This document shows, in pieces, positions 10,446 through 38,733 of a DNA stretch of 64,000 nucleotides. A model generated the notes under the pieces. The model had not been told where the DNA came from. It did not search any database and worked only from the letters and a program-made list of their open reading frames with translations. The position numbers were made by a program, and so were the translations under genes. Position 1 is the first letter of the stretch, and each line of letters opens with the position of its first letter. The stretch is from an uncultured Gammaproteobacteria bacterium (lineage in GTDB: Bacteria; Patescibacteriota; Patescibacteriia; Buchananbacterales; UBA6539). The stretch is from NCBI GenBank assembly GCA_964535715.1, contig CAZHUO010000001.1, forward strand, positions 31,696 to 95,695, in the 5' to 3' direction.

Positions 10446-13400
10446 ATGAAAATTCTCTATAAAAAATCAAAAAGCCTCTTCAGCTTAAAACTATTTGTTT
10501 TAGCTTTTGTTTTTGCCGGCTTTGCGGCTTTTATTCCTTTCAGCCTTTCTTTGGATTATTCGGCTGTTTCTTTTGTAAATATAAAAGATTCAATTCAGGG
10601 AAGCAGTAATGATATTTTCAGCTTCGAATTAAATGAAGCTTATGCCCAGGCTACACCAGCTGCTGCCGAAGCTAATAAGGATTACACGCCGTCAACTGTC
10701 GGCCGATTTGTCAGTGATGCAATCGGAAAATTGGTTTTGCTTATTGTCAGGGCTGAAGGCTGGATAATCACCAAGCTTGCTTATATTCTAATGGCGCTAA
10801 TGCGCTATAACGGCTTTGTGACATCAGCGGCCGTTTCAAAAGGCTGGACTTTGGTTCGGGATGTGTCAAACATGTTTTTTGCCCTGATTATTTTGGCAAT
10901 TGCCTTGGGCACGATTTTGAAAGTTGAGTCATATAATATTAAAAGGCTTTTGCCGAAAGTTCTGCTTATGGCAATATTGGTTAATTTCAGCCGGACAATC
11001 TGCGGGCTGATGATTGATTTTGCCCAAGTGATAATGATTACTTTTGCCGCGGCATTTGCCGGTTCGGGCGGATCAGGCGGCTCAAATATAGTTTCAATTT
11101 TTAAGCTCCAAGACCTTCTTTTTAGTCAAACAGAAGCAGAAGCAATTACAAACAAAGATGGTATTAAAGCTGACAATGTAATTATAACCGGAATTTTAAT
11201 TGTTGTTATGCTTGCCATTGCCGTTGTTGTGCTTTTAGTAATGACAGTTGTGATTTTAATGAGGATGATAATGCTTTGGATTCTTTTGGTTCTTTCGCCT
11301 TTGCCTTTTATCCTTTCGGCTTTTCCCCAGGGTGAAAAATACGCCCAGCAGTTTTGGCAGGAATTCAGCAAATATGTGATTGTCGGTCCGATAATGGCTT
11401 TTTTCCTTTGGCTTTCTTTTGCAGTTGCCGATCCCGCTTCAAACTATGATAAAGGTTTAATGAATGATGCAAGTGAATCAGTTAATGCCTCTACAAGCGG
11501 TGATTTATCAACTGATAATAGTGTTGTCTTTACCAGTATTGGTAATATTGAGTCTTTTTTGTCATTTGTAATCGGCATCGGCATGCTGATGGCTTCCTTG
11601 ATGGTTACCCAGCAGCTGGGCGTGGCGGGGGGGAGCTTTGCGGGAGCTGCTTCGGCAAAGATTAAGCAAACCGGGATTGGGGCTTTGAGATTTGGCGCTA
11701 ATACTGTAAAATTTGGCGCCAAACTGCCTTTTAAAGGTGCAAATTTGGCGGAAAAAACCTTATTTGGGTCAACCGGAATCGGCTTGAATCCGATGCGCGC
11801 TTACCGTGGATTTAAGGAAAGATATGCGTCATGGAGCGAAAGAATGGAAAGTGAAGGTGCAAACAAAGGCTCGCAAAAGGCAAAAAATCTTATTCTCAAA
11901 GAAGGAAAACGAAATATTGCAACCAGAGCTTTCGGCTACGCCGGTTTGGCAATGACTTCACCAAAAGATTTCAGCCAGAATTATTTGGGCTGGAGAGGAA
12001 TTAAAAGGGGATTTGGTACTATTTTTAAAGGAACAAGTATTGATGAAATGAAAGACTGGGAGAAGGAAAGAACAAGAAGAAAAGAAGAAATTGCCTTGCG
12101 ACAAAAACTCGGATTTATCGGTGATGTCACCGAGGCCGGCGAAAAACAGATTGTTTCTGATGGAGCTGAAAATTTAACCCAGCTTTTAAAAAGTTCAAAT
12201 GCAGCAACTGTTTCCGGGGCGCTTCATTTGACAGTTGATTATGATGATGCAACAAAATTTAATACGGTAGCTGATGTTTTTGATAGCATGAATGAAAAAA
12301 CCTTGGGTGATTTAAGAGATTATCTGCCCGAAGGCACTGATATTGAACTTAAAAGAGATAGTACAGGGAAAGCATTAGGCGGGCTTGATGATGAAACAAC
12401 TAGCAAACAAAAAGATGCTTTACTTTCGGCAATTGCCAAGCAACAGTCAGAAAAACTTATGAAAGAACATAATGAATGGTTTGATAATAATACTGTTGCG
12501 AGTTCAGTATTGGTAGACTCTGGATTTAAGACAACAAAAGGCAAACAATATTATGCAGAGGAAGAAACAAAAAGAAGTTCTGAACTCAGTCGGGTTAAAG
12601 CTGGGGGATTGTCAAATATTCAGGCAGAAGGCCGCCAAAAGCGCCTTGAAGATATTCAGCTGCAAATTGTATCAATACTTAAAAAAATTGATAAAGATGG
12701 AGATTCTAGAGGTGAATATCGAGCCAAAATAGATGAATTAGTTAAAGAAGGAACTGATTTAGGTGGTGTTGCAGTTGAAGATGATAAAATTAAAACCCGT
12801 CTAGGTATAAGTGGTGTATTTCATTTCGGTAAAAGTAATACTGATCGCAGCAGCCAGAATATTATACCCGTGATAACAAGATCAGCTGTATTAACCAAAG
12901 AAGAAAAAGAAGAAAATACTAAGAAGGACGATGCAAACGGTTTAAGTATTTTAGACAAACTTGATCGAGATTTAGCTTATTTTAGAAAAGAAAGATCTTT
13001 TGCTGAAGCGGATCCAAATACAAGAAGAATATTGCAAAAAAATATTAATAGCAGTGTAGAAAAGGACAGTAAAAAACTTATTGTTGAAGATCAGAAAAAA
13101 ATGAGCGAGTTTAAAATGGCGCCAATTCCCTATGAAGCTTTGACTCAAGCTCGGGCGGCGGAAAGAGACCAGCTTTCCAAACTTCCTCAAGCAATGGAAT
13201 GGACGGAAATTGAAAGCGAATTAAGGACTGCCATTCAAATGGGAAATAAATCGCGTGTCCGAGCCTTAATGATGAAAGCCGCCAATGACTATAATGACAA
13301 TGAAATCTGGAATGCCTGGGGCTACGGTGCAAATGCCAAGGGAATGAGAGATTTTGGTCAAGAAGTTTTGGTAAATAAATTGAAAATGAATGAACAGGAA

Positions 13401-13868
13401 ATGTTAAGTTTCATGAATGATATAGCTTATGTAAACGAAGATCGAAATCATTTTGAAACCGCCAGAATGGTGACAATGCATGGCGGACAAGCAAGGTGGT
13501 CAACTGAAGAAGAGCATGCCGCTTCAATTTCAAATGAAAATTTAAAGCAGGCAAGCCGCGGCTTTTTACAGAATACCAACCGGCTTGGTTTTGGCGGTGA
13601 AAAAGACGGCAAGTATGAAATAGCATTGTCCGGAAAACTGACTCTTGCCGGGTTGGGCGATGTTGAGCTGCAAAATCGTATTAACCGCGGTGAATTTAAT
13701 CCGAGTCTGCTTTCAAAAATCGCCTCTGACCTTACCGGCCTGGAAGATATGGTTAAGCGCGGCTGGATAAGCCGAAGGACAATGGAGATGATTGTTTCTC
13801 GGGCAGCAACCAAAAAAATCCAAGCCGAATATACTGATTTATTAAGAAAAGCAAAACAAAAATTTTAG
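10446..13868 (+). CDS. VirB6/TrbL-like polytopic membrane protein with a long charged C-terminal extension (type IV secretion-like inner-membrane component)
   Basis: N-terminal signal/TM, then about eight hydrophobic helices in the first ~450 aa (e.g. LLPKVLLMAILVNFSRTICGLMIDFAQVIMITFAAAF, VIITGILIVVMLAIAVVVLLVMTVVILMRMIMLWILLVL). A ~650-aa K/E-rich coiled-coil-like tail follows. It lies upstream of a VirB4 ATPase. The family assignment is inference from architecture and synteny. Confidence 0.55.
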   Translation: MKILYKKSKSLFSLKLFVLAFVFAGFAAFIPFSLSLDYSAVSFVNIKDSIQGSSNDIFSFELNEAYAQATPAAAEANKDYTPSTVGRFVSDAIGKLVLLIVRAEGWIITKLAYILMALMRYNGFVTSAAVSKGWTLVRDVSNMFFALIILAIALGTILKVESYNIKRLLPKVLLMAILVNFSRTICGLMIDFAQVIMITFAAAFAGSGGSGGSNIVSIFKLQDLLFSQTEAEAITNKDGIKADNVIITGILIVVMLAIAVVVLLVMTVVILMRMIMLWILLVLSPLPFILSAFPQGEKYAQQFWQEFSKYVIVGPIMAFFLWLSFAVADPASNYDKGLMNDASESVNASTSGDLSTDNSVVFTSIGNIESFLSFVIGIGMLMASLMVTQQLGVAGGSFAGAASAKIKQTGIGALRFGANTVKFGAKLPFKGANLAEKTLFGSTGIGLNPMRAYRGFKERYASWSERMESEGANKGSQKAKNLILKEGKRNIATRAFGYAGLAMTSPKDFSQNYLGWRGIKRGFGTIFKGTSIDEMKDWEKERTRRKEEIALRQKLGFIGDVTEAGEKQIVSDGAENLTQLLKSSNAATVSGALHLTVDYDDATKFNTVADVFDSMNEKTLGDLRDYLPEGTDIELKRDSTGKALGGLDDETTSKQKDALLSAIAKQQSEKLMKEHNEWFDNNTVASSVLVDSGFKTTKGKQYYAEEETKRSSELSRVKAGGLSNIQAEGRQKRLEDIQLQIVSILKKIDKDGDSRGEYRAKIDELVKEGTDLGGVAVEDDKIKTRLGISGVFHFGKSNTDRSSQNIIPVITRSAVLTKEEKEENTKKDDANGLSILDKLDRDLAYFRKERSFAEADPNTRRILQKNINSSVEKDSKKLIVEDQKKMSEFKMAPIPYEALTQARAAERDQLSKLPQAMEWTEIESELRTAIQMGNKSRVRALMMKAANDYNDNEIWNAWGYGANAKGMRDFGQEVLVNKLKMNEQEMLSFMNDIAYVNEDRNHFETARMVTMHGGQARWSTEEEHAASISNENLKQASRGFLQNTNRLGFGGEKDGKYEIALSGKLTLAGLGDVELQNRINRGEFNPSLLSKIASDLTGLEDMVKRGWISRRTMEMIVSRAATKKIQAEYTDLLRKAKQKF

Positions 13869-13880
13869 CAAATATTAATT

Positions 13881-15215
13881 ATGCAAATTAACGAAGAATT
13901 AATCCAGGAATTTGAAGACCATACAAAGGAAGTTCTGCAATACAATTTGGTAGAGCAAGCCAGGCTTTTTGTTGAAAAAATTTGGCCGGAAATTGTTGCT
14001 GATAAAAATTTTGAAAAAAATAATCCGTCAATTTATGTCAGATTGAAAAAGATATATAATTTAAATTTGATTTTGCAGCTTGGCCGCCTGCCGGAAAAAA
14101 CCATTTTTGATTTATTTGAAAACAGCATTCAGCTGTATTATTTGGAAATGATTGACTATGCTGATCTTTGGCAGCTAATCAGAGCGAAATTAGTCACAAT
14201 GTTTGACATTGATGAGAGAAATAATTTTAAAAAACAGCTATCGAAGCTACTTTTAAGAAATAAAAATTTAATTACTAAAATCGCTTTAGAGCGTGACGGA
14301 AAAGAACATGAGCCGTCAATTGACCAGTGGCTTATTGACTACACCAGTTTTGTTGGTATTAAAAGTGTTGATGCCGTCAAAATGAATGAATATTTTACAG
14401 TGAATAATAATTTCAAAAAACTTTCCGATGAGGATAAAAATATCGTCCGTCAGCTTATTATTTTATATGAAAGACTAAAAAAATCATCGGCTGATCCGGA
14501 AGGGCTGGAAGAAAAAGTTACCATATTTGAAGACGGCAAGCTGATGGTTTTTCGCGAGGGCAGGTTTGAGGATTTAGATCCGAGAATTTCTAAATTAATG
14601 AAAGATCTGAAAAAAGACGAAAAAACCGGTTTACTTGCCGAAAAAGAAGATTCCTCCGGTCTTTTAGCTGATTCCGAAGAGCAAGAAATTGGTTTTGCTG
14701 AAACCAAACAGGATTCAGCGCCTGAAGATCAGAAAGAAGTAATCAAAGCCTACCAAGGCGATTTAAAGAAGGAAAAAGCAATTTCCAAGCTGGAAGAAAA
14801 GCTGATTAATAAAATCAATAATGATGCCGATAAATTAAGGGCTGAATTTTTTACTGCGGTTCAATCTAAGGATGCTGATAAAACAATTGCAGTTTTATAT
14901 GTTTTAGCTAAAAAAAATGATCTGACAAAATTTTTAGAGCAAGACCAAAAGCTGAATAAATTCATTTTGGCAACCTGGGAAAAAAGATACGGCAAAGAGT
15001 TTGCTGCGGATTTTTCAAAAGATCCAGGCAATGTAAAATTCATCCGCTTATTTTTAAAATATATTTTGGAAGAACGGTTAAAAATTCCGACCAATGATGC
15101 AGCCAGGGTGGGAATCAGAATAGGCAATATTCTCATTGAGTTCGGCCATAAGGATTTTAATCAGATTGCTTATTTTGACATGAAAAATAAAAAGTTTGAA
15201 TGGTTTGAGGAGTAG
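13881..15215 (+). CDS. Hypothetical soluble alpha-helical protein (444 aa)
   Basis: Long ORF tightly coupled (12 nt) to the upstream gene. No recognisable catalytic motifs. Confidence 0.6.
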   Translation: MQINEELIQEFEDHTKEVLQYNLVEQARLFVEKIWPEIVADKNFEKNNPSIYVRLKKIYNLNLILQLGRLPEKTIFDLFENSIQLYYLEMIDYADLWQLIRAKLVTMFDIDERNNFKKQLSKLLLRNKNLITKIALERDGKEHEPSIDQWLIDYTSFVGIKSVDAVKMNEYFTVNNNFKKLSDEDKNIVRQLIILYERLKKSSADPEGLEEKVTIFEDGKLMVFREGRFEDLDPRISKLMKDLKKDEKTGLLAEKEDSSGLLADSEEQEIGFAETKQDSAPEDQKEVIKAYQGDLKKEKAISKLEEKLINKINNDADKLRAEFFTAVQSKDADKTIAVLYVLAKKNDLTKFLEQDQKLNKFILATWEKRYGKEFAADFSKDPGNVKFIRLFLKYILEERLKIPTNDAARVGIRIGNILIEFGHKDFNQIAYFDMKNKKFEWFEE

Positions 15216-15311
15216 GTAATTAGGATGGTAGATCGGTAGATTGGTAGATAGTAAAGACAAATATATTCATATATAATCAACATAGCGCTGATATTTATTA
15301 ATTATATAAAT

Positions 15312-15617
15312 ATGACGCGTTATCAATATTATACCTACATAATGACTAATAAATTAAATACGACGATTTATATTGGTGTAACTAATGATATTTATAATCG
15401 AGTTTATCAGCATAAGAAAAAATTGGTCGAAGGCTTCACTAGCAGGTATAATATTAATAAGCTGGTTTATTATGAGGAATATGATTATATTGAAGATGCA
15501 ATATATCGAGAAAAACAATTAAAGAATTGGCGCCGCCAATGGAAAATTAATTTAATAAATGAATTTAATCCTGAATGGAAAGATTTAAGCGATGATTGGT
15601 ATGATGAAAAGGATTAA
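15312..15617 (+). CDS. Small stand-alone GIY-YIG nuclease-domain protein
   Basis: YIMTNKLNTTIYIGVTNDIYNRVYQHK matches the GIY-(x10-11)-YIG motif and the downstream R/H/N residues. It is 101 aa, the size typical of free-standing GIY-YIG selfish genes. Confidence 0.8.
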   Translation: MTRYQYYTYIMTNKLNTTIYIGVTNDIYNRVYQHKKKLVEGFTSRYNINKLVYYEEYDYIEDAIYREKQLKNWRRQWKINLINEFNPEWKDLSDDWYDEKD

Positions 15618-16046
15618 TTGTCATCCTGAATTCATTACCTTTTTGTCATCCTGAATTCATTTCAGGATCTCGGAAAGTCTAGAAAGCAACACTTTGTCAT
15701 CCTGAATTCATTTCAGGATCCAGCAAATCCTAGAGACTCTGAAATAAATTCAGAGTGACAAGTCTAGAAAAAAAGCGCACCCTTGTCATCCTGAACTTGC
15801 CTGCCCGCCGGAGCAAAAGTGTAGGCGGGGTTCAGGATCCAGCAAAGTCTAGAAAGCAACACTTTGTCATCCTGAATTCATTTCAGGATCCAGCAAAGTC
15901 TAGAGACTCTGAAATAAATTCAGAGTGACAAGTCTAGAAAAAAAGCGCACCCTTGTCATCCTGAATTCATTACCTTTTTGTCATCCTGAACTTGGTTCAG
16001 GATCCAGCAAAGTCTAGAGACTTTGAAATAAATTCAGAGTGACAAA
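15618..16046. repeat. Array of palindromic hairpin repeat units (REP/MITE-like). About 2.5 copies of a ~170-bp composite unit.
   Basis: Recurrent ttgtcatcctgaa-N-ttcaggatc hairpins (8-bp stem, loops of 5 nt up to a 36-nt GC-rich loop) and gagactctgaaataaattcagagtgac hairpins. Nested tgacaag...cttgtca stems. The 125-bp segments 15676-15800 and 15846-15967 are near-identical. Confidence 0.8.
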
Positions 16047-16119
16047 TGAAGAAATAAAGTAAAGACAAATCTTAAAATTAATAACTAACAACAAAACTGG
16101 GGGTTAAATTGACAAAACT

Positions 16120-17295
16120 ATGCAAAAAGACAGCGAAAAAAATTATATTTTTACTTCGGAATCGGTAACCGAAGGCCATCCTGATAAAGTCTGTGATAAA
16201 ATTTCAGACTCTATTTTAGATGAACTATTGAAGCAGGATCCGAATTCTCATGCCGGAATTGAAACATTGGTGACTACCGGCATGGTGGTTGTAGCCGGTG
16301 AAATCAGGACAAAAGGCTACGTTGATATTGCTAATATTGCCCGTCAGGCAATTAAAGAAATCGGCTACGATGATCATTCATCAGGCTTTCATTGGCAGGA
16401 CTGCGGGGTAATGGTGGCAATTGACGAACAAAGTCCGGATATTGCCCAGGGAGTTGACGCCGGAAGAGGAAAATTTAAAAAGCAGGGAGCCGGCGACCAG
16501 GGCTTGATGTTTGGCTATGCCTGCAAGGAAACTCCGGAGCTTATGCCTTTGCCCATAATTTTAGCCCATAAAATTTGCCAAAGGCTTGCCCAGGTTCGAA
16601 AAAATAAAACCTTGCCATATCTTCGGCCTGACGGAAAGTCCGAAGTGGCGGTTGAATATGTAAACGGCAAGCCGAAAAGAATAAATACGGTTGTTGTTGC
16701 GGCCAGTCATAACGAAAATGTTTCAAGCAAAAAGCTGGAAAAAGACATTCTCAAGAAAGTTGTCAAGCCGATTTGCGGCAAATATATTGACAGTAAAACC
16801 AAAATTTTCATCAACGCCACGGGACGCTTTGTGAAATGCGGACCGCCGGCTGACACCGGGCTTACCGGCCGAAAAATTATCGTTGATACTTATGGCGGAT
16901 TCGGCCGTCATGGTGGCGGCTGTTTTTCAGGCAAAGATCCGTCAAAAGTTGACCGCTCAGCTTCATATATGGCACGCTATGTCGCAAAAAATATAGTTTC
17001 TGCCGGCTTAGCCGACCGCTGCGAAGTCGAGCTTGCTTATGTAATCGGCGTTGCCGAACCTATCAGCATTTTAGTGGAAAGTTTCGGCACGGGAAAAGTT
17101 TCTGATGAAAGAATTGTTGAGCTGATCAGGAAATTTTTTGACCTTACTCCGGCGGGAATAATTAAAAAATTAAAACTGCTTCGGCCGATTTATAAAAAAA
17201 CCGCCGCATACGGCCATTTTGGCAGAAAAGAACCAGATTTTACCTGGGAGAAAACCGATTTGGCACAAACATTGAGAAAAGCCGCCGGATTTTAA
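16120..17295 (+). CDS. metK: S-adenosylmethionine synthetase
   Basis: [21 protein letters not shown]-terminal signature. GAGDQG and a full-length bacterial MetK layout. Confidence 0.95.
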
Positions 17296-17305
17296 GCAAA
17301 ATAAA

Positions 17306-17460
17306 GGGTATTAACCGCGGAGAAAGTCGCTGACGCGTCAAAGGAGCGCTTTGGGGGTATTGACACTTGATGGCTCCTCGGTTCGGAAACAAAAAATTGT
17401 TTACTTTTTGTTTCTCTCTCCCTACGCCACTGTCGATCGAGATCGACGTGGCTTACGTCG
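17306..17460 (-). mobile_element. MITE-like structured repeat, copy a (inverted orientation)
   Basis: The reverse complement matches copies b, c and d (...gagagaaacaaaaagtaaacaa..ttttgtttccga.ccgaggagccatcaa..gtcaataccc...ccgcggttaataccc). Flanked by aataaa (17300-17305) and ttaataaaa (17461-17469). Confidence 0.6.
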
Positions 17461-17534
17461 TTAATAAAATATTTATTTGTCGATTATTGATATAAATGTT
17501 AAAATAAATCTAGGTAACTTAGGCCAAAGAATGC

Positions 17535-17611
17535 ATTGAAGCACAAAAACACTAAAGCACCGGAAAAAAATGTTTTGTAATTCTAGTGTTTTAATGCTTT
17601 TGTGCTTCAAT
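17535..17611. promoter_or_regulatory. Large palindrome immediately upstream of the 17622 gene
   Basis: Perfect 14-bp inverted arms attgaagcacaaaa (17535-17548) and ttttgtgcttcaat (17598-17611), with further partial complementarity (acacta/tagtgt) in the spacer. It ends 10 nt before the ATG. Confidence 0.4.
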
Positions 17612-17621
17612 CGATATTAAT

Positions 17622-18794
17622 ATGACAAATAATCAAGTCAAAACCGATGATTTTTTTACTCTACTGAAAGACGAGCGGAAAAACAGCGATCCTTTTGCAA
17701 ACGATGAAATAATTATTCTGGATAAAAAAGGCAATCTCAGCATTTTAAAAGACGGCAAGATTACCGATTTTGGGCCATTAAAAAAGAAAATTGAAAATGA
17801 GCCTAAAAAAGTTGTGGCGGAAATAAAACAAACGCCCCAAATTGACTTTCAGGCGGAGATAGATGATATCATCGAAAAATCCGGCATTCATTTTTCTGAT
17901 CAAGAAACGGAAAGGCGTTTTCGCAGCCTGATTTTATCAAGGCTTAAAGGTGCCAGAAATCAGATTCAAACTCGTGAAATAATGCTTGATTCACCGTCAT
18001 CGGGCGGTTTGGGCTTTAAGCCGGATGAAGCCGAAAGGGTATTATCTGCAATCTCCAAGCAGGCTCAAGATATGGATAAAATGTTCAGGGACGGCATGAG
18101 TTCCGGATATTTTTCCGATTTGCAGCTGCAGGTTGATTCTATTTTAAAAAATGCGGATTCAGAGCTGAAAAAACCAAAGATTGATTTGGCCAAAGCAAAG
18201 GAAACTGATAAAATTGAAGATAAAGGAGGACTTATTTTACCGGCTGAAAATTTAATTAAGCCAAAAGCCAACATTAACATTAAGCCCAAAGAAGACGTAT
18301 CGCCTAAAACAGCTGTTAATAAAGAGAAGAAAAATTATTTAAAACCCGGCGATTTTTTGGCAAAAAAATCTGAGTCCAAGCCATTGTTTAAGGCTCCTGT
18401 TGATTTATCGCCTGTAAATTTTCAATCATTATCAAAGCCCAAGATTGAAGATGTTAAATTTCGCTCAAGGCTTACAGGTCCGATTGAAGAAATCAGGTCA
18501 ATGACTTTAGTTGATTTTAGGAGATTGGGAAAAGACGCCAAAGATGCAATAGGAAAAATTGTGGAAAAAATACAAATTTTGGAGGACGAATCATTTCCAA
18601 AAAGAATTCAGGCAATCAGGGCTTGGAAAGAAAGCCCGGTAAATCAGCTTTATTTGGAACTTGGCGCTGAAAGTATGGAAAAGAAAATGCCGATTTTGGA
18701 AGTAATCAGCCAAAGGCAGAAAAATGGCATTGATACTTTAACCGAACAGGAAATTGAAGAAATCATGGAATTTAATAAAAAATTAAGATACTAG
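17622..18794 (+). CDS. Hypothetical K/E-rich protein (390 aa) inside the T4SS-like cluster
   Basis: Long ORF in the same orientation as, and directly upstream of, the VirB3-like and VirB4 genes. No recognisable motifs. Confidence 0.6.
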   Translation: MTNNQVKTDDFFTLLKDERKNSDPFANDEIIILDKKGNLSILKDGKITDFGPLKKKIENEPKKVVAEIKQTPQIDFQAEIDDIIEKSGIHFSDQETERRFRSLILSRLKGARNQIQTREIMLDSPSSGGLGFKPDEAERVLSAISKQAQDMDKMFRDGMSSGYFSDLQLQVDSILKNADSELKKPKIDLAKAKETDKIEDKGGLILPAENLIKPKANINIKPKEDVSPKTAVNKEKKNYLKPGDFLAKKSESKPLFKAPVDLSPVNFQSLSKPKIEDVKFRSRLTGPIEEIRSMTLVDFRRLGKDAKDAIGKIVEKIQILEDESFPKRIQAIRAWKESPVNQLYLELGAESMEKKMPILEVISQRQKNGIDTLTEQEIEEIMEFNKKLRY

Positions 18795-18820
18795 CCTGAC
18801 AGTTAAATGTTAACTGTTAA

Positions 18821-19294
18821 ATGTTAACTGTTATATTAATGCAACAATTTGTAATTCCACAATTTATCGATGTTGAGGACAAAGTAATAGGACCGATTAC
18901 CGTTCGGCAGTTTGTAATATTGCTTATCGGAGGCGGACTTTGTTTTATTGAATATAAGCTGACTGATCTGGCATTATTTCTTGTAGAGGCGGCATTTACC
19001 GCACTTATTGCATGTGTTTTGGCGTTTGTAAAAATCAACGGCCGGCCGATTCATTATTTTATTCTTAATGCTTTCCAGACTTTGTTTCGGCCGAAACTGC
19101 GCGTTTGGCAGAAGAAATTTACAGCAACGGAGCTAAAAAGTTATTGGAAAGAAGAAAAAAGCATGCTGCCGCCGGAGATAAGAACAAAAAATAAAGTTAG
19201 GGCTTCAAGGCTGGCTGAAATGGCTCTTATTGTTGATACCGGCGGCGTATATCAAGGGGAAGATCTGCCTGGCGTAAAACAGGAATTATATTAA
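18821..19294 (+). CDS. Small two-TM membrane protein, VirB3-like by position
   Basis: Two hydrophobic helices (FVILLIGGGLCFIEY; LALFLVEAAFTALIACVLAFV). It sits directly upstream of the VirB4 region, as virB3 does. An alternative start is the ATG at 18838 (MQQFVIPQF...). Confidence 0.5.
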   Translation: MLTVILMQQFVIPQFIDVEDKVIGPITVRQFVILLIGGGLCFIEYKLTDLALFLVEAAFTALIACVLAFVKINGRPIHYFILNAFQTLFRPKLRVWQKKFTATELKSYWKEEKSMLPPEIRTKNKVRASRLAEMALIVDTGGVYQGEDLPGVKQELY

Positions 19295-19307
19295 AATATA
19301 AATTTGA

Positions 19308-23487: not shown

Positions 23488-23963
<476 letters not shown>

Positions 23964-23980
23964 TCCCACCCTCTCCGCCA
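23964..23980 (+). repeat. Duplicated tRNA-Ser 3' end (tcccaccctctccgcca), att-like junction between the two element copies
   Basis: Exact 17-nt copy of tRNA positions 23561-23577. A degenerate third copy (atccaccctctc) lies at 24549-24560. Confidence 0.8.
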
Positions 23981-24065
23981 GACTACGCTCCTCACTTTGT
24001 TCGGAGCTTCGTCTGACAGGCTAGATAATATCAACATAGCGCGCTTAATAAATAATTTTTGCGCT

Positions 24066-24499
24066 ATGTACTATGTTTATTTTTTGAAAAGTAAGAAAGC
24101 AGAAAATTGGATATATACAGGTTCAACAGTTAATTTAAAAAAAAGATTTTTAGATCACAGTTTAGGAAAATCATTATCGACAAAACCATATTTACCAGTT
24201 TATTGGCGACGTAGGGCGAGAGAAACAAAAAGTAAACAACTTTTGTTTCCGAGCCGAGGAGCCATCAAAGGGTCAATACCCGAAAGCGCTCCGTCGCCAA
24301 AGCTTTAATTATTCAGCTTTGGAGCGTCGGCGACTTGCTGCGGAAGAAGTGGGCGGAGCTTGCTCCGCGGTTTAATACCCTTTATTTAGCAGCTTATATA
24401 GCAGTTAAAACAGAAAGAAAGGCAAGAGATTTAGAAAAATATTTTAAGGCTGGGTCAGGCAAAGCAATATTAAAAAAAAGAATTTTAACTAACGAAGTG
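24066..24499 (+). pseudogene. GIY-YIG gene, copy 2, disrupted by MITE-like insertion after codon ~46
   Basis: The reading frame is identical to 23663..23917 up to ...KPYLPVY. It then runs into the insert (182 bp including the duplication, not a multiple of 3). Confidence 0.6.
24205..24380 (+). mobile_element. MITE-like structured repeat, copy b, with 6-bp TTTATT target duplication
   Basis: Empty site in copy 1 is ccagTTTATTtagcagc. Filled site in copy 2 is ccagTTTATT[ggcgacgtagggcgag...ggtttaataccc]TTTATTtagcagc. Internal stems ggcgacg/cgtcgcc, gaaacaaaa/ttttgtttc and gcggagc/gctccgc. Confidence 0.75.
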
Positions 24500-24596
24500 T
24501 AAACGTAATCAGTTTTAAGCGACGAAGCCCTTTAAAGGGCGTAGTCGCATCCACCCTCTCAATTTGAATATATATAAAAATAAATAAAATAAATTT

Positions 24597-36444: not shown

Positions 36445-38733
36445 TTGGAAATTAAAATTATGAAAAAGTATTCTAAATCAACCAATTTATTTACTTTTTT
36501 GCCGATTTTAGCGGTGGCAGTTTTTGCCACTTTTTTTGTTGGCGGTATTTGCGTTTTTGCCCAAACCTGGGTTGGTCCGACAGCTGATCCGCCGGGAAAT
36601 AACGTTTCCGGCTTAATTCAAAATAGAAATCCGATTGATAATAATCCCCAAGCGGCCTCAATTGATATTTCCGGCCAGTTAAGGGTTGGAAATAAAGCGG
36701 AAGTTGATAATTTAGTAATGACAAATTCCGGCTGGATTACGGTTGTCGGCGGTTCGATTTGCCTTGGTTCGACTAATCCGGAGGATTGCATAAGTGTCTG
36801 GCCGGGTAGCGGAAATGAGAGCATATGGGTTTTGAAAGATAATAATGACATTTATTATAATGCTGGCAATGTAGGTATTGGCACTAGTAATCCTAGTGCG
36901 GATATTAGGTTGATAGTTGGAGATGGCACTCCCATCGGCAATATTATCGGTATTAGCGGTGCCAGCAGCGAATATATAGGCACCCGCCTGGATGTTTTGG
37001 GTGCGGAAAAATGGTTTTCCGGAATAAATAATCAGGAAGATTATGTAATTAGAAAAGACAGCTCTTCTAATCCTTTTTTAATTGATTATGATACCAGCAA
37101 TGTCGGGATTGGTACAGGTGTGCCTGATAATAAATTAACAGTGAACGGCGACATTAATATTATTAACGGCAATAAATACAGAATTAACAATGAAATTATG
37201 GTTCAAGCTGATACTTCTAAGAAAAACTATTTTTTTGCCAATGCCGGAAATTTAACAATGACAGGTGATTTTAATAGTGTCTTGGGTAGAAATTCTTTGA
37301 AAAATAATGTTGAAGGTTCAGGAAATGTTGCTTTTGGCGAGCAAGCCCTAACTAATACAATTTCCGGTAATTATAATACGGCATTGGGATTTAAATCACT
37401 CTTTAATCATTTGTCCAGTTTTACCAATACGGCCATAGGAAGTTTGTCGGGAGGGAATCTAATTAATGGCAATGGAAACACTTTTTTAGGAACTTATTCA
37501 GGCGGCAATATAGAAGAAGGCAATTATAATACTTTTGTCGGTTATGGTTCCGGCGGCTACCTTTCAAATATACTGAAAGTTGGTTCAAATAATATTTTAA
37601 TTGGCTATAATGCCGGCGCAATAGAAAATATATCTAATTTTTTAAATATTGGAAATACGATATATGGCGATTTATCTGCCAAAAGTGTTGGCATTGGAGT
37701 AGTCAGCCCTTCGCAGAAGCTTGATGTTGGCGGCAGCTTGAAAGTTGCCGAAGATGTTTATTTAGAAAATGATAAAGCTGTGAGAGTTGACGGTTCAGGC
37801 TTAACAAATCTATATATTGGAAATTGGGGAGTGGGAGCATCAGGCGTTAATTTAAATATAAATAACGGCGGCATATTAGCAGCCGGCAGTAACAGCTGGG
37901 ACGGCGGAACTTTAGGAGCGGGTAAAAGAATGATGTGGATACCGGCAAAATCAGCTTTTAGAGCCGGTATGGTCGAAGGTGATGAGTGGAATTCTGTAAA
38001 TATTGGAAATTATAGTTTTGCCGTCGGTTTTAATACAAAAGCATCGGGTGGAAGTTCAGTAGCAATGGGTTCCAAAACAACCGCTTCAGGTCAATCTTCA
38101 TTAGCTTTAGGTACTGATACTATGGCTTCAGGACATTGGTCAATGGCAACTGGTTGGGGAACTCAGGCATTGGGAATCATGTCAACGGCGATGGGTGAAG
38201 GATCAATTGCCTTGGGAGATTTTTCGACGGCAATTGGATTGCATTCAAGAGCGGGAAGATATTCAGTGGCAATAGGAAAAGATACAATAGCTTCAGGCCA
38301 AGGTTCGGTTGCATTTGGTAATACCTCAGAAGCATCAGGCAATTATTCAGTAGCAATTGGTTCTTTAACTACCGCTTCAGGTCAATCTTCATTTGCTTTA
38401 GGTTCGAGTATAGTAGCATCGGGTGGAAGTTCAGTAGCAATGGGGCAAAGAATTAGCGTTTCCGGAAATAATAGTTTTGGAATAGGGCTTGATTATTATT
38501 CAAGGGAATTAACTCAGCCAAATACCATGGCAGTAATGGGCGGAAAAGTCGGAATTGGGATACTTAATCCTGTTGAAGTATTGGAAGTTAACGGAAACAT
38601 TAAGGCAAGCGGGGGCTATTTAGCTGGTAGCCAGCAAGGTTTAACCAAGAATATTACAGTCAAAGGTTCTGACGGGAATAATTGCAGCATTAATGTGGTT
38701 GGCGGAATAATTGTATCCACCACCTGTCCTTAA
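36445..38733 (+). CDS. Secreted repeat protein with YadA-head/Hep_Hag-like or tail-fibre-like Ser/Gly/Ala 14-residue repeats
   Basis: Signal/[27 protein letters not shown]. More than 12 tandem degenerate repeats of the form xxSxAxGxxTxASGxxS (e.g. [34 protein letters not shown]...). Confidence 0.7.

Follow-up and report, generated by a model that had tools for sequence, protein, structure and literature searches.

A probable Ssn-SRM cassette, a putative single-stranded DNA endonuclease gene with a hairpin array, inserted upstream of metK in a Patescibacteria genome

Single-domain GIY-YIG nucleases of the Ssn family are associated with clusters of short hairpin motifs surrounding their own genes. 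Here, we describe a locus from a Patescibacteria genome that very probably represents such a pairing, an Ssn-SRM cassette composed of an Ssn-family GIY-YIG nuclease gene and an array of its cognate hairpin motifs (Ssn-related motifs, SRM, also known as CGTC/TGTC-tagged REPs). The locus resides in a 64-kb stretch of DNA (contig CAZHUO010000001.1, positions 31,696 to 95,695), which was analysed as a whole and is referred to as the window; coordinates are those of the window unless another locus is named. The cassette is a 764-bp insert (15282-16045) upstream of metK and consists of a 30-nt leader, the ssn gene (15312-15617, + strand) and a hairpin array of 428 bp that begins directly after the ssn stop codon (15618-16045). 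It occupies most of the 904-nt spacer (15216-16119) between a gene encoding a 444-aa protein and metK, which starts at 16120. No other supported open reading frame (ORF) was found between the insert junctions, and the GIY-YIG gene is the only gene there. An earlier note on this DNA had pointed out a 101-aa GIY-YIG ORF and a ~430-bp hairpin array bracketed by two copies of a 13-bp direct repeat, and this arrangement was confirmed. The locus is an additional case of the already described Ssn/SRM gene-hairpin pairing.

The ssn gene has an ATG start and encodes a protein of 101 aa, in which the GIY-YIG domain (Pfam PF01541, E=6e-17) covers residues 5-80 and no further domain is present. The AlphaFold model likewise features one compact GIY-YIG domain (predicted local distance difference test score, pLDDT, of 91). 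Homologs of similar length (~95-105 aa) that are 51-66% identical to the protein occur in more than 15 phyla, including Patescibacteria, Bacteroidota, Proteobacteria, Firmicutes, Cyanobacteria, Chloroflexota and others, and a total of 5281 cluster representatives match it at E<=1e-10; within the window there is no second homolog. In an alignment of 42 sequences Y20, R30 and E67 are invariant while Y9 is at least 90% conserved, and these four residues are predicted to be catalytic. The spacings between Y9, Y20 and E67 (11 and 47 residues) equal those between Y6, Y17 and E64 of SsnA from N. meningitidis, residues whose mutation abolishes cutting (PMC11893778). The Ssn proteins described by Chenal et al. 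2025 are single-domain GIY-YIG proteins of ~94 aa (CDD cd10448) that act as site-specific endonucleases on single-stranded DNA (ssDNA) only, cutting beside hairpin repeats clustered around their own genes (PMC11893778). Additionally, exact copies of the Neisseria NTS consensus, the motif recognised in that system, flank 57-59% identical homologs in the loci L048, L068 and L086 (L numbers are our handles for the loci and contigs used in comparisons). Because of the catalytic spacing, the GIY-YIG fold and these NTS-flanked homologs, we regard the window protein as a member of the Ssn family and as a putative ssDNA endonuclease.

The closest solved folds retrieved with Foldseek were the UPF0213/COG2827 protein BH0048 of B. 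halodurans (1ZG2, E=3.7e-4), Slx1 (TM-score about 0.55-0.59) and the N-terminal domain of UvrC, and the protein has no sequence-level match in the PDB. UPF0213 and Slx1 differ from the ssn protein in that their identity to it is 18-25% and that no hairpin association is known for them. Searches against PHROGs gave no match, and PADLOC returned weak sub-threshold matches only (E=0.003-0.009). One of these, to a homing-endonuclease model (E=0.003), would agree with an I-TevI-type homing endonuclease encoded by a free-standing GIY-YIG gene, for which the hairpins would be either unrelated or the target, as would a weak match to the group I intron endonuclease family TIGR01453 (16.8 bits vs a cut-off of 56). 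However, both matches are far below threshold and reflect the shared catalytic core only, the single-domain protein of 101 aa has no DNA-binding domain, and there is no intron or intein context, which makes a homing endonuclease hardly credible.

The hairpin array contains ten complete or partial units, which begin right after the stop codon and all keep GTC and C in frame. They are of two types, which lie on opposite strands. The A unit, TT-GTC-ATCCTGAA-ttcat-TTCAGGAT-CCAG, is on the + strand and is present in five full copies and as two 5' halves, while the B unit, TT-GTC-ACTCTGAA-tttat-TTCAGAGT-CTCT, is on the - strand in three copies. The frame common to both is an unpaired GTC tag, a palindrome of 8-9 bp starting with AT (A) or AC (B), a loop, and then a C. 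Within the window, the words TTGTCATCCTGAA (seven copies, + strand) and TTGTCACTCTGAA (three copies, - strand) are confined to the array. Starting from the stop codon, the array opens with an A half-unit made up of the tag and left arm (TTGTCATCCTGAATTCATTACCTT; 15618-15641, +), followed by A unit 1 (15645-15669, +), which reads GTC-ATCCTGAA-ttcat-TTCAGGAT-C and folds as ssDNA at -6.2 kcal/mol (z=-4.3), A unit 2 with the tail CCAG (15696-15720, +) and B unit 1 (15735-15759, -), which reads GTC-ACTCTGAA-tttat-TTCAGAGT-C on its own strand. Next come A unit 3 (15785-15839, +), whose loop of 33 nt holds a nested G+C-rich hairpin (CCCGCC...GGCGGG), A unit 4 (15866-15890, +) and B unit 2 (15905-15929, -). 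The array continues with a second A half-unit identical to the first (15953-15976, +) and A unit 5 with a 9-bp stem and a 3-nt loop (15980-16004, +), and closes with B unit 3, in which the stem has one T.G mismatch (16019-16045, -). Folding as ssDNA, a check proposed in the earlier note, gave about -6 to -7 kcal/mol with z about -4 for the A and B units.

The array also features a higher-order repeat of 135 nt, with 15661-15795 and 15831-15965 being 96% identical, and the 25-nt half-unit present at its start in the window is absent from the strain-level contig L003, which is 99-100% identical. With a tandem-amplified segment and a half-unit difference between near-identical strains, the array is unstable. 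Short-read contigs from several sequencing runs confirmed both edges of the array but break inside it, and the interior copy number is that of the source assembly. Nested hairpins similar to that of A unit 3 (15798-15830) are often found in SRM loops, for example in L005 (6200-6240), L015 (2749-2821), where the loop holds a complete second SRM, and L091 (1855-1964), and the loops seem to be preferred places for further hairpin insertion. An SRM-like hairpin over the ssn start codon (15291-15317, - strand; GTC-ATATTTAT-ataatta-ATAAATAT-C) was also considered, and it is probably a chance occurrence because its stem is all A/T, its fold is weak (-3.2 kcal/mol, z=-2.0) and it is not conserved in L095 and L100.

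In Neisseria, the NTS is CGTCATTCCCGCGMAVGCGGGAATCYRG, with the frame CGTC-ATTCCCGC..GCGGGAAT-CYRG, and cleavage by SsnA is governed by the GTC before the palindrome, while its binding depends most on the C that follows (PMC11893778). The window resembles this system at the level of the protein, with a single GIY-YIG domain of ~100 aa and the same Tyr/Tyr/Glu spacing, as well as at the level of the hairpins, with the A unit showing GTC, a palindrome starting with AT and then C(YRG), and with hairpins that cluster at the gene and have outward-facing tags. It differs from the described Ssn systems in its host, as Patescibacteria (candidate phyla radiation, CPR) are a group unmentioned in PMC11893778, in its AT-rich stems ATCCTGAA and ACTCTGAA, which are at least 4 positions off the published SRM string, and in the placement of its ten units including two half-units, which are all 3' of the gene and partly tandem-amplified, with no dispersed copies in the 64 kb.

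The association between gene and hairpins is not confined to the window. Association rates were obtained from 80 genome loci with homologs by comparing the sequence within 400 nt of the gene with the four-fold larger remainder, and hairpin orientation was assessed in 162 loci. The published SRM string, HGTCWYN(0-2)YYVSBRHN(0-5)WNVSBRGN(0-2)RNCYNB, was found in 52 copies within 400 nt of the gene and in 13 copies farther away (0.63 vs 0.038 per kb), with matches beside the homolog in 23 of the 80 loci. For a generic hairpin, defined as GTC, a perfect stem of at least 7 bp and C, the densities were 1.88 vs 0.14 per kb, and 50 of the 80 loci had one beside the gene. Hairpins are thus enriched 14- to 17-fold next to the homologs, in many phyla. 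The stems found beside homologs start with AT in 145 cases out of 163; the commonest stem class is ATCCTG, which is also that of the window, with the Neisseria class, ATTCCC, coming second, and CCAG is the most frequent tail. As the outermost upstream hairpin is on the strand of the gene (69 of 85) and the outermost downstream hairpin on the opposite strand (75 of 97), the tags face outward, and they do so at both ends in 55 of the 73 loci having hairpins on both sides.

This distribution bears on the possibility that the hairpins are ordinary REP-like (repetitive extragenic palindrome) RNA elements, serving as terminators or mRNA stabilisers, that neighbour a small nuclease gene by chance. 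The hairpins are indeed downstream of the gene and would also fold as RNA, and an RNA-level role was earlier assumed for CGTC-type REPs (PMC3733652). Chance neighbourhood is, however, at odds with the 14- to 17-fold enrichment in many phyla, and both orientations occur with the asymmetric GTC and C flanks kept, which argues for strand-specific recognition at the level of DNA. Further, a scan of the array found no terminator-like site, no T-run follows the hairpins, and SsnA has been shown to bind hairpins of this kind in ssDNA but not in RNA form (PMC11893778). We therefore consider a role as mere RNA elements very improbable. Rfam at gathering thresholds detected only tRNAs across the window, a permissive search over the array gave only sub-threshold chance matches to eukaryotic miRNA and snoRNA families, and six related loci had no match.

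Among known hairpin repeats, the CGTC/TGTC-tagged REPs have an unpaired tag, a stem of 8-9 bp that opens with A-T, a loop of 4-5 nt and a CCA tail (PMC3733652). They include dRS3 of Neisseria and RPE-4/RPE-6 of Rickettsia, and no dedicated protein was found for this class (Di Nocera et al. 2013, PMC3733652). The A units of the window fit the description, with a TGTC tag, an 8-bp AT stem, a 5-nt loop, a CCA tail and neighbours of opposite orientation, whereas the B units deviate from it in starting with AC and having the tail CTCT. Also, CGTC-REPs are high-copy and dispersed across genomes, while the window copies are at one locus within 64 kb. The REP/BIME-RAYT systems (bacterial interspersed mosaic elements and REP-associated tyrosine transposases) and the IS200/IS605 insertion sequences share with the window a small gene flanked by oriented hairpins recognised as ssDNA, mosaic alternating clusters, insertion without target duplication, and a subterminal hairpin a few nt from the end. 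The window differs from them in having a hydrolytic GIY-YIG protein and no Y1 HUH enzyme (Pfam Y1_Tnp), so that no covalent intermediate or strand transfer is expected, and its mobility is putative. As stated in the earlier note, the array is neither a CRISPR nor an integron attC array. Unlike in a CRISPR, the sequences between the hairpins are themselves repeated, the units are on both strands and there are no cas genes; unlike attC sites, which are ~57-141 bp and accompanied by intI, the hairpins are ~25-30 nt, are not separated by ORFs and have no integrase gene nearby, and there is no match to an RNA family.

The extent of the cassette was resolved by comparison with a relative lacking it. 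The order of genes for a TrbL/VirB6-like protein, the 444-aa protein, MetK, a ~370-420-aa protein, PrgI, a TraC-like and a VirB4-like protein is conserved in Patescibacteria relatives, with the 444-aa homologs being 38-49% identical, and the insert is extra to this order. In one of these relatives, L182, the spacer between the 444-aa gene and metK is 198 nt and insert-free, and the two window flanks, 15224-15281 and 16046-16070, are contiguous in it. For the left flank, which contains the left 13-mer copy and, after it, ATATTCATATATAATCAAC, alignment to the beginning of the L182 spacer gave a local score of 36, which was reached by 0 of 300 shuffles. The L182 bases that come after AATCAAC match window 16046-16070 at 17 of 24 positions, and the junction-to-junction placement is the best of the 96 offsets tested (per-offset frequency 3e-5). 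The joined window flanks are colinear with the L182 spacer across the join, and these matches place the junctions at 15281/15282 and 16045/16046.

Both ends of the insert have features of their own. The left end, ATAGCGC, and the leader recur before ssn genes that are 82-83% identical and located in another genomic context (L095 and L100). The right end, ...TTCAGAGTGACAA, corresponds to the tag end of the final B unit, and the right junction is 2 nt from the outward-facing GTC tag of this terminal hairpin (16041-16043 on the + strand), close to SsnA-type cut positions. The cassettes in L095 and L100 end in the same way, immediately before the ribosome-binding site of the next gene. A candidate for a conserved junction word, AAAGTAAAG, which is found beside the cassette in L095 and partly in L093, was rejected because it is the coding end of the neighbouring gene in L095, and the orthologous L100 has AGGATTAAA. 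With regard to the location, the earlier note had placed the insert between VirB6-like genes and metK. A TrbL/VirB6 match was obtained for the 1140-aa gene (10446-13868) only, and the 444-aa gene adjacent to the insert has no Pfam match.

Several points weigh against the locus being an Ssn-SRM cassette with the ends described above. Membership in the Ssn family is argued from transitive evidence, and the nuclease activity, strand specificity and cut position of the window protein are inferred by analogy. The published SRM string has 0 strict matches in the window, with the A and B units needing at least 4 substitutions where the NTS needs 0, because the inner half of their stems is A/T; this string is a search heuristic and not a definition, and the window units have the defining frame. 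No copies of the hairpins are found elsewhere in the 64 kb, so a Neisseria-style restriction would have no visible substrate besides the locus itself. The window has no clean upstream hairpin, unlike L091 and L093. Finally, L182 is a distant relative, with a 444-aa homolog that is 38% identical and ~120 aligned intergenic bases.

The 13-bp direct repeat had been taken in the earlier note as a sign of an ~800-bp insertion with target duplication, that is, a transposition-like event in which the 13-mers mark the ends of the element. The duplication was not borne out. The left copy of AGTAAAGACAAAT is at 15250-15262 (+), as reported, in native spacer 19 nt left of the insert junction, and the right copy is at 16058-16070 (+) and not at 16057-16069, in native DNA upstream of metK, 12 nt beyond the right junction. 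As native DNA homologous to the empty L182 spacer separates both copies from the junctions, they are not a target-site duplication.

How unusual the repeat is depends on how the comparison is made. For the exact word, the claim that chance expectation is far below 1 holds: AGTAAAGACAAAT has no third exact copy in the window, the expectation is 0.22 even with one mismatch, and a 1-mismatch copy at 36714 is inside a coding region. Copies with up to 3 mismatches are unenriched in the window (50 found vs 45 expected), and in 179 fetched loci the word is absent outside contigs of the same strain. With regard to 13-mer pairs of any sequence the claim has to be qualified, as dinucleotide shuffles of the window contained ~190 exact direct 13-mer pairs, 7.4 +/- 2.5 of them at a spacing of 200-1500 nt, and the real AT-rich window holds four other unrelated pairs at this spacing. 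A 13-nt word common to the two short flanks (96 + 74 nt) was seen in 0 of 5000 dinucleotide and 1 of 2000 mononucleotide shuffles, and only in this restricted comparison does the match stand out.

The low probability of a shared 13-mer in these flanks, its uniqueness to the locus and the absence of gene and array from the same spacer in several relatives are what a target duplication has in its favour. It is contradicted by the position of the copies, since neither abuts the insert, and by the roughly seven such pairs per window expected by chance at this spacing. Flanking direct repeats are missing from the sister cassettes (L093, L095 and L100), and the family as a whole shows no signal either: when target duplication was considered as a family trait, the longest words shared by matched flanks resembled those of mismatched flanks, barring the hairpin motif, and the long direct repeats found around the gene across the family are copies of that motif itself. 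Moreover, we know of no GIY-YIG enzyme that makes staggered target duplications. Altogether, an insertion that duplicated its target is highly unlikely.

The 33-nt stretches begun by the two 13-mers are 73% identical, which fits an older local duplication, and a -10-like hexamer is found ~9 nt downstream of each copy (TATAAT at 15272-15277 and TAATAA at 16079-16084). Without the insert, the 13-mers would be 44 nt apart. The simplest reading is that they are part of an older short duplication, possibly of a promoter-like piece of the metK upstream region. A promoter as such was not supported by a consensus scan, which gave no convincing sigma-70 site at either copy, nor by the unenriched relaxed copies of the word. 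The two 13-mers share an equal register, each ending exactly 49 nt upstream of a start codon (that of ssn at 15312 and that of metK at 16120).

Small accessory DNA is repeatedly found between the 444-aa gene and metK in Patescibacteria relatives, making this spacer a hot spot. In L093/L094 it holds a 72% identical ssn gene with an upstream hairpin and two A(+)/B(-) pairs, in L005 (6163-6544) an inverted pair of SRM-type hairpins with no gene, in L008/L009 (L008 6339-6705) several hairpins with no gene, and in L181 (3878-5228) an unrelated nucleotidyltransferase gene and a 128-aa gene; the spacers of L180 (109 nt) and L010 (209 nt) are, like that of L182, empty. The module of ssn, A(+) and B(-) is thus found in the same spacer in L093/L094, but also beside a LytR_C gene in L091 (78% identical) and, in L095 and L100 (82-83%), with a membrane-protein gene on one side and a HIT gene on the other. 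Among the modules, the stems show compensatory changes (ATCCTGAA/TTCAGGAT, ATGCCGAA/TTCGGCAT, ACTCTGAA/TTCAGAGT, ATTCCGAA/TTCGGAAT and ACCCTGAA/TTCAGGGT). The window has no orthologs of the genes neighbouring the cassettes in L091 and L100, and hence no empty sites for those contexts. In L091, the array is followed downstream (1990-2050) by the C-terminal end of another ssn gene (..KEWKDLSEEWHD*), with further GTCATTGCGAG-class hairpins behind it, and this is what remains of a second cassette beside the intact one.

Given this variation, the cassette could also be ancestral at the spacer and have been lost in the relatives, either precisely or leaving remnants, in which case the L182 match would reflect a clean deletion. 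The 72% identical ssn gene with A(+)/B(-) units in the same spacer of L093/L094 is consistent with such a history, as are the gene-less hairpins in L005 and L008/L009 and the distances between lineages, with MetK being ~61-62% identical to that of the window in the four comparable relatives measured, which are therefore about equally distant from the window organism. On the other hand, the nearest relatives of the ssn gene (82-83% and 78%) are found in unrelated contexts, the seamless junction in L182 would need exact excision, and the A unit is identical at 28 of 30 nt between the window and L093 while the surrounding spacer is unalignable. Ancestral presence followed by loss is a possibility that we take seriously but consider unlikely, and the difference may reflect either a gain in the window lineage or a loss in the relatives.

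Based on the published biochemistry of four homologs, a mechanism can be proposed for the cassette. When the region becomes single-stranded, during replication, transformation or conjugative entry, the hairpins would extrude. By analogy with SsnA, the Ssn protein would bind a hairpin via its stem and the 3' C and nick a few nt 5' of the GTC tag, and with A and B units being opposite in direction, cuts would be possible on either strand. In Neisseria, Ssn activity limits the integration of incoming DNA carrying the repeat (PMC11893778). For the window, a role directed at the cassette itself, whether in maintaining, spreading or rearranging it, is at least as likely, because no dispersed repeats are visible in the 64 kb. 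Pointing to such a role are the ssn-A(+)-B(-) module in three unrelated contexts, the gene-less hairpin pairs left in the same spacer of relatives, the outward tags, the insert ending at a tag without target duplication, and the strain-variable half-unit. To our knowledge a GIY-YIG hydrolase cannot rejoin DNA by itself, and host repair or recombination would therefore be needed.

Runs of 5' half-units, consisting of tag and left arm with a period of 18-25 nt and located directly before a complete hairpin, recur in distant phyla (L018 3384-3448, L040 2860-2938, L047 2653-2716 and L072 2709-2790) and may have been left behind by nicks made and repaired at the hairpin. The junction mapping, the near-identical modules in unrelated contexts and the outward-tag rule point to Ssn cassettes as mobile units, an idea present in the literature as a hypothesis only; Chenal et al. 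2025 raise only a resemblance to insertion sequences and show no junctions (PMC11893778). More specifically, Ssn-SRM cassettes might be discrete mobile units with ends set by the outward hairpin tags, which are the expected nick sites, inserting without target duplication, while the half-units of many phyla would be by-products of repeated nicking and repair. We put this forward tentatively, as a rather doubtful proposition in its full form.

The earlier note had also suggested at least two lineages of tiny GIY-YIG elements in this genome, which holds because a second small GIY-YIG protein, linked to a tRNA-Ser gene, belongs to another, unrelated subfamily with no detectable pairwise similarity to the ssn protein. 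Its ORF (Pfam E=4e-10) follows tRNA-Ser (23488-23574). The ORF is situated within two duplications, one of 241 nt (23561-23801 and 23964-24204, 100% identical) and one of 180 nt (23796-23975 and 24381-24560, 98%), and 23488-24560 looks like the product of repeated integration or duplication at the tRNA 3' end. As for the surroundings of the cassette, metK is embedded in a type-IV-secretion-like cluster in the window (10446-19300) and in L005-L010, L093 and L180-L182, with ~61% MetK identity, and a 23S_rRNA_IVP-family gene follows directly after metK in L010 and L182. Immediately before the metK start, all relatives have a conserved purine-rich motif, ..CTTGGGGACAGG..GAAAGG.. (L005 6480-6545, L008 6645-6705, L010 5130-5189, L093 3700-3727 and L182 4085-4110), with a shorter form, ACTGGGGGTT, in the window (~16090-16119). 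This motif has no match to an Rfam family, and it may be the ribosome-binding region only or a small leader element.

The locus extends the Ssn/SRM pairing to Patescibacteria and provides two new candidate recognition hairpins, GTC-ATCCTGAA and GTC-ACTCTGAA. The published SRM string misses the AT-rich ATCCTG class, which is the commonest around homologs in our sample, and reported association rates may therefore be underestimates. Also, a 13-bp repeat may be locally improbable without being a target duplication. The part worth following is the junction evidence for the mobility of the cassette: if Ssn-SRM cassettes are indeed mobile units, the window (filled) and L182 (empty) would constitute a first filled/empty site pair for a family that is also of interest as a source of ssDNA tools.

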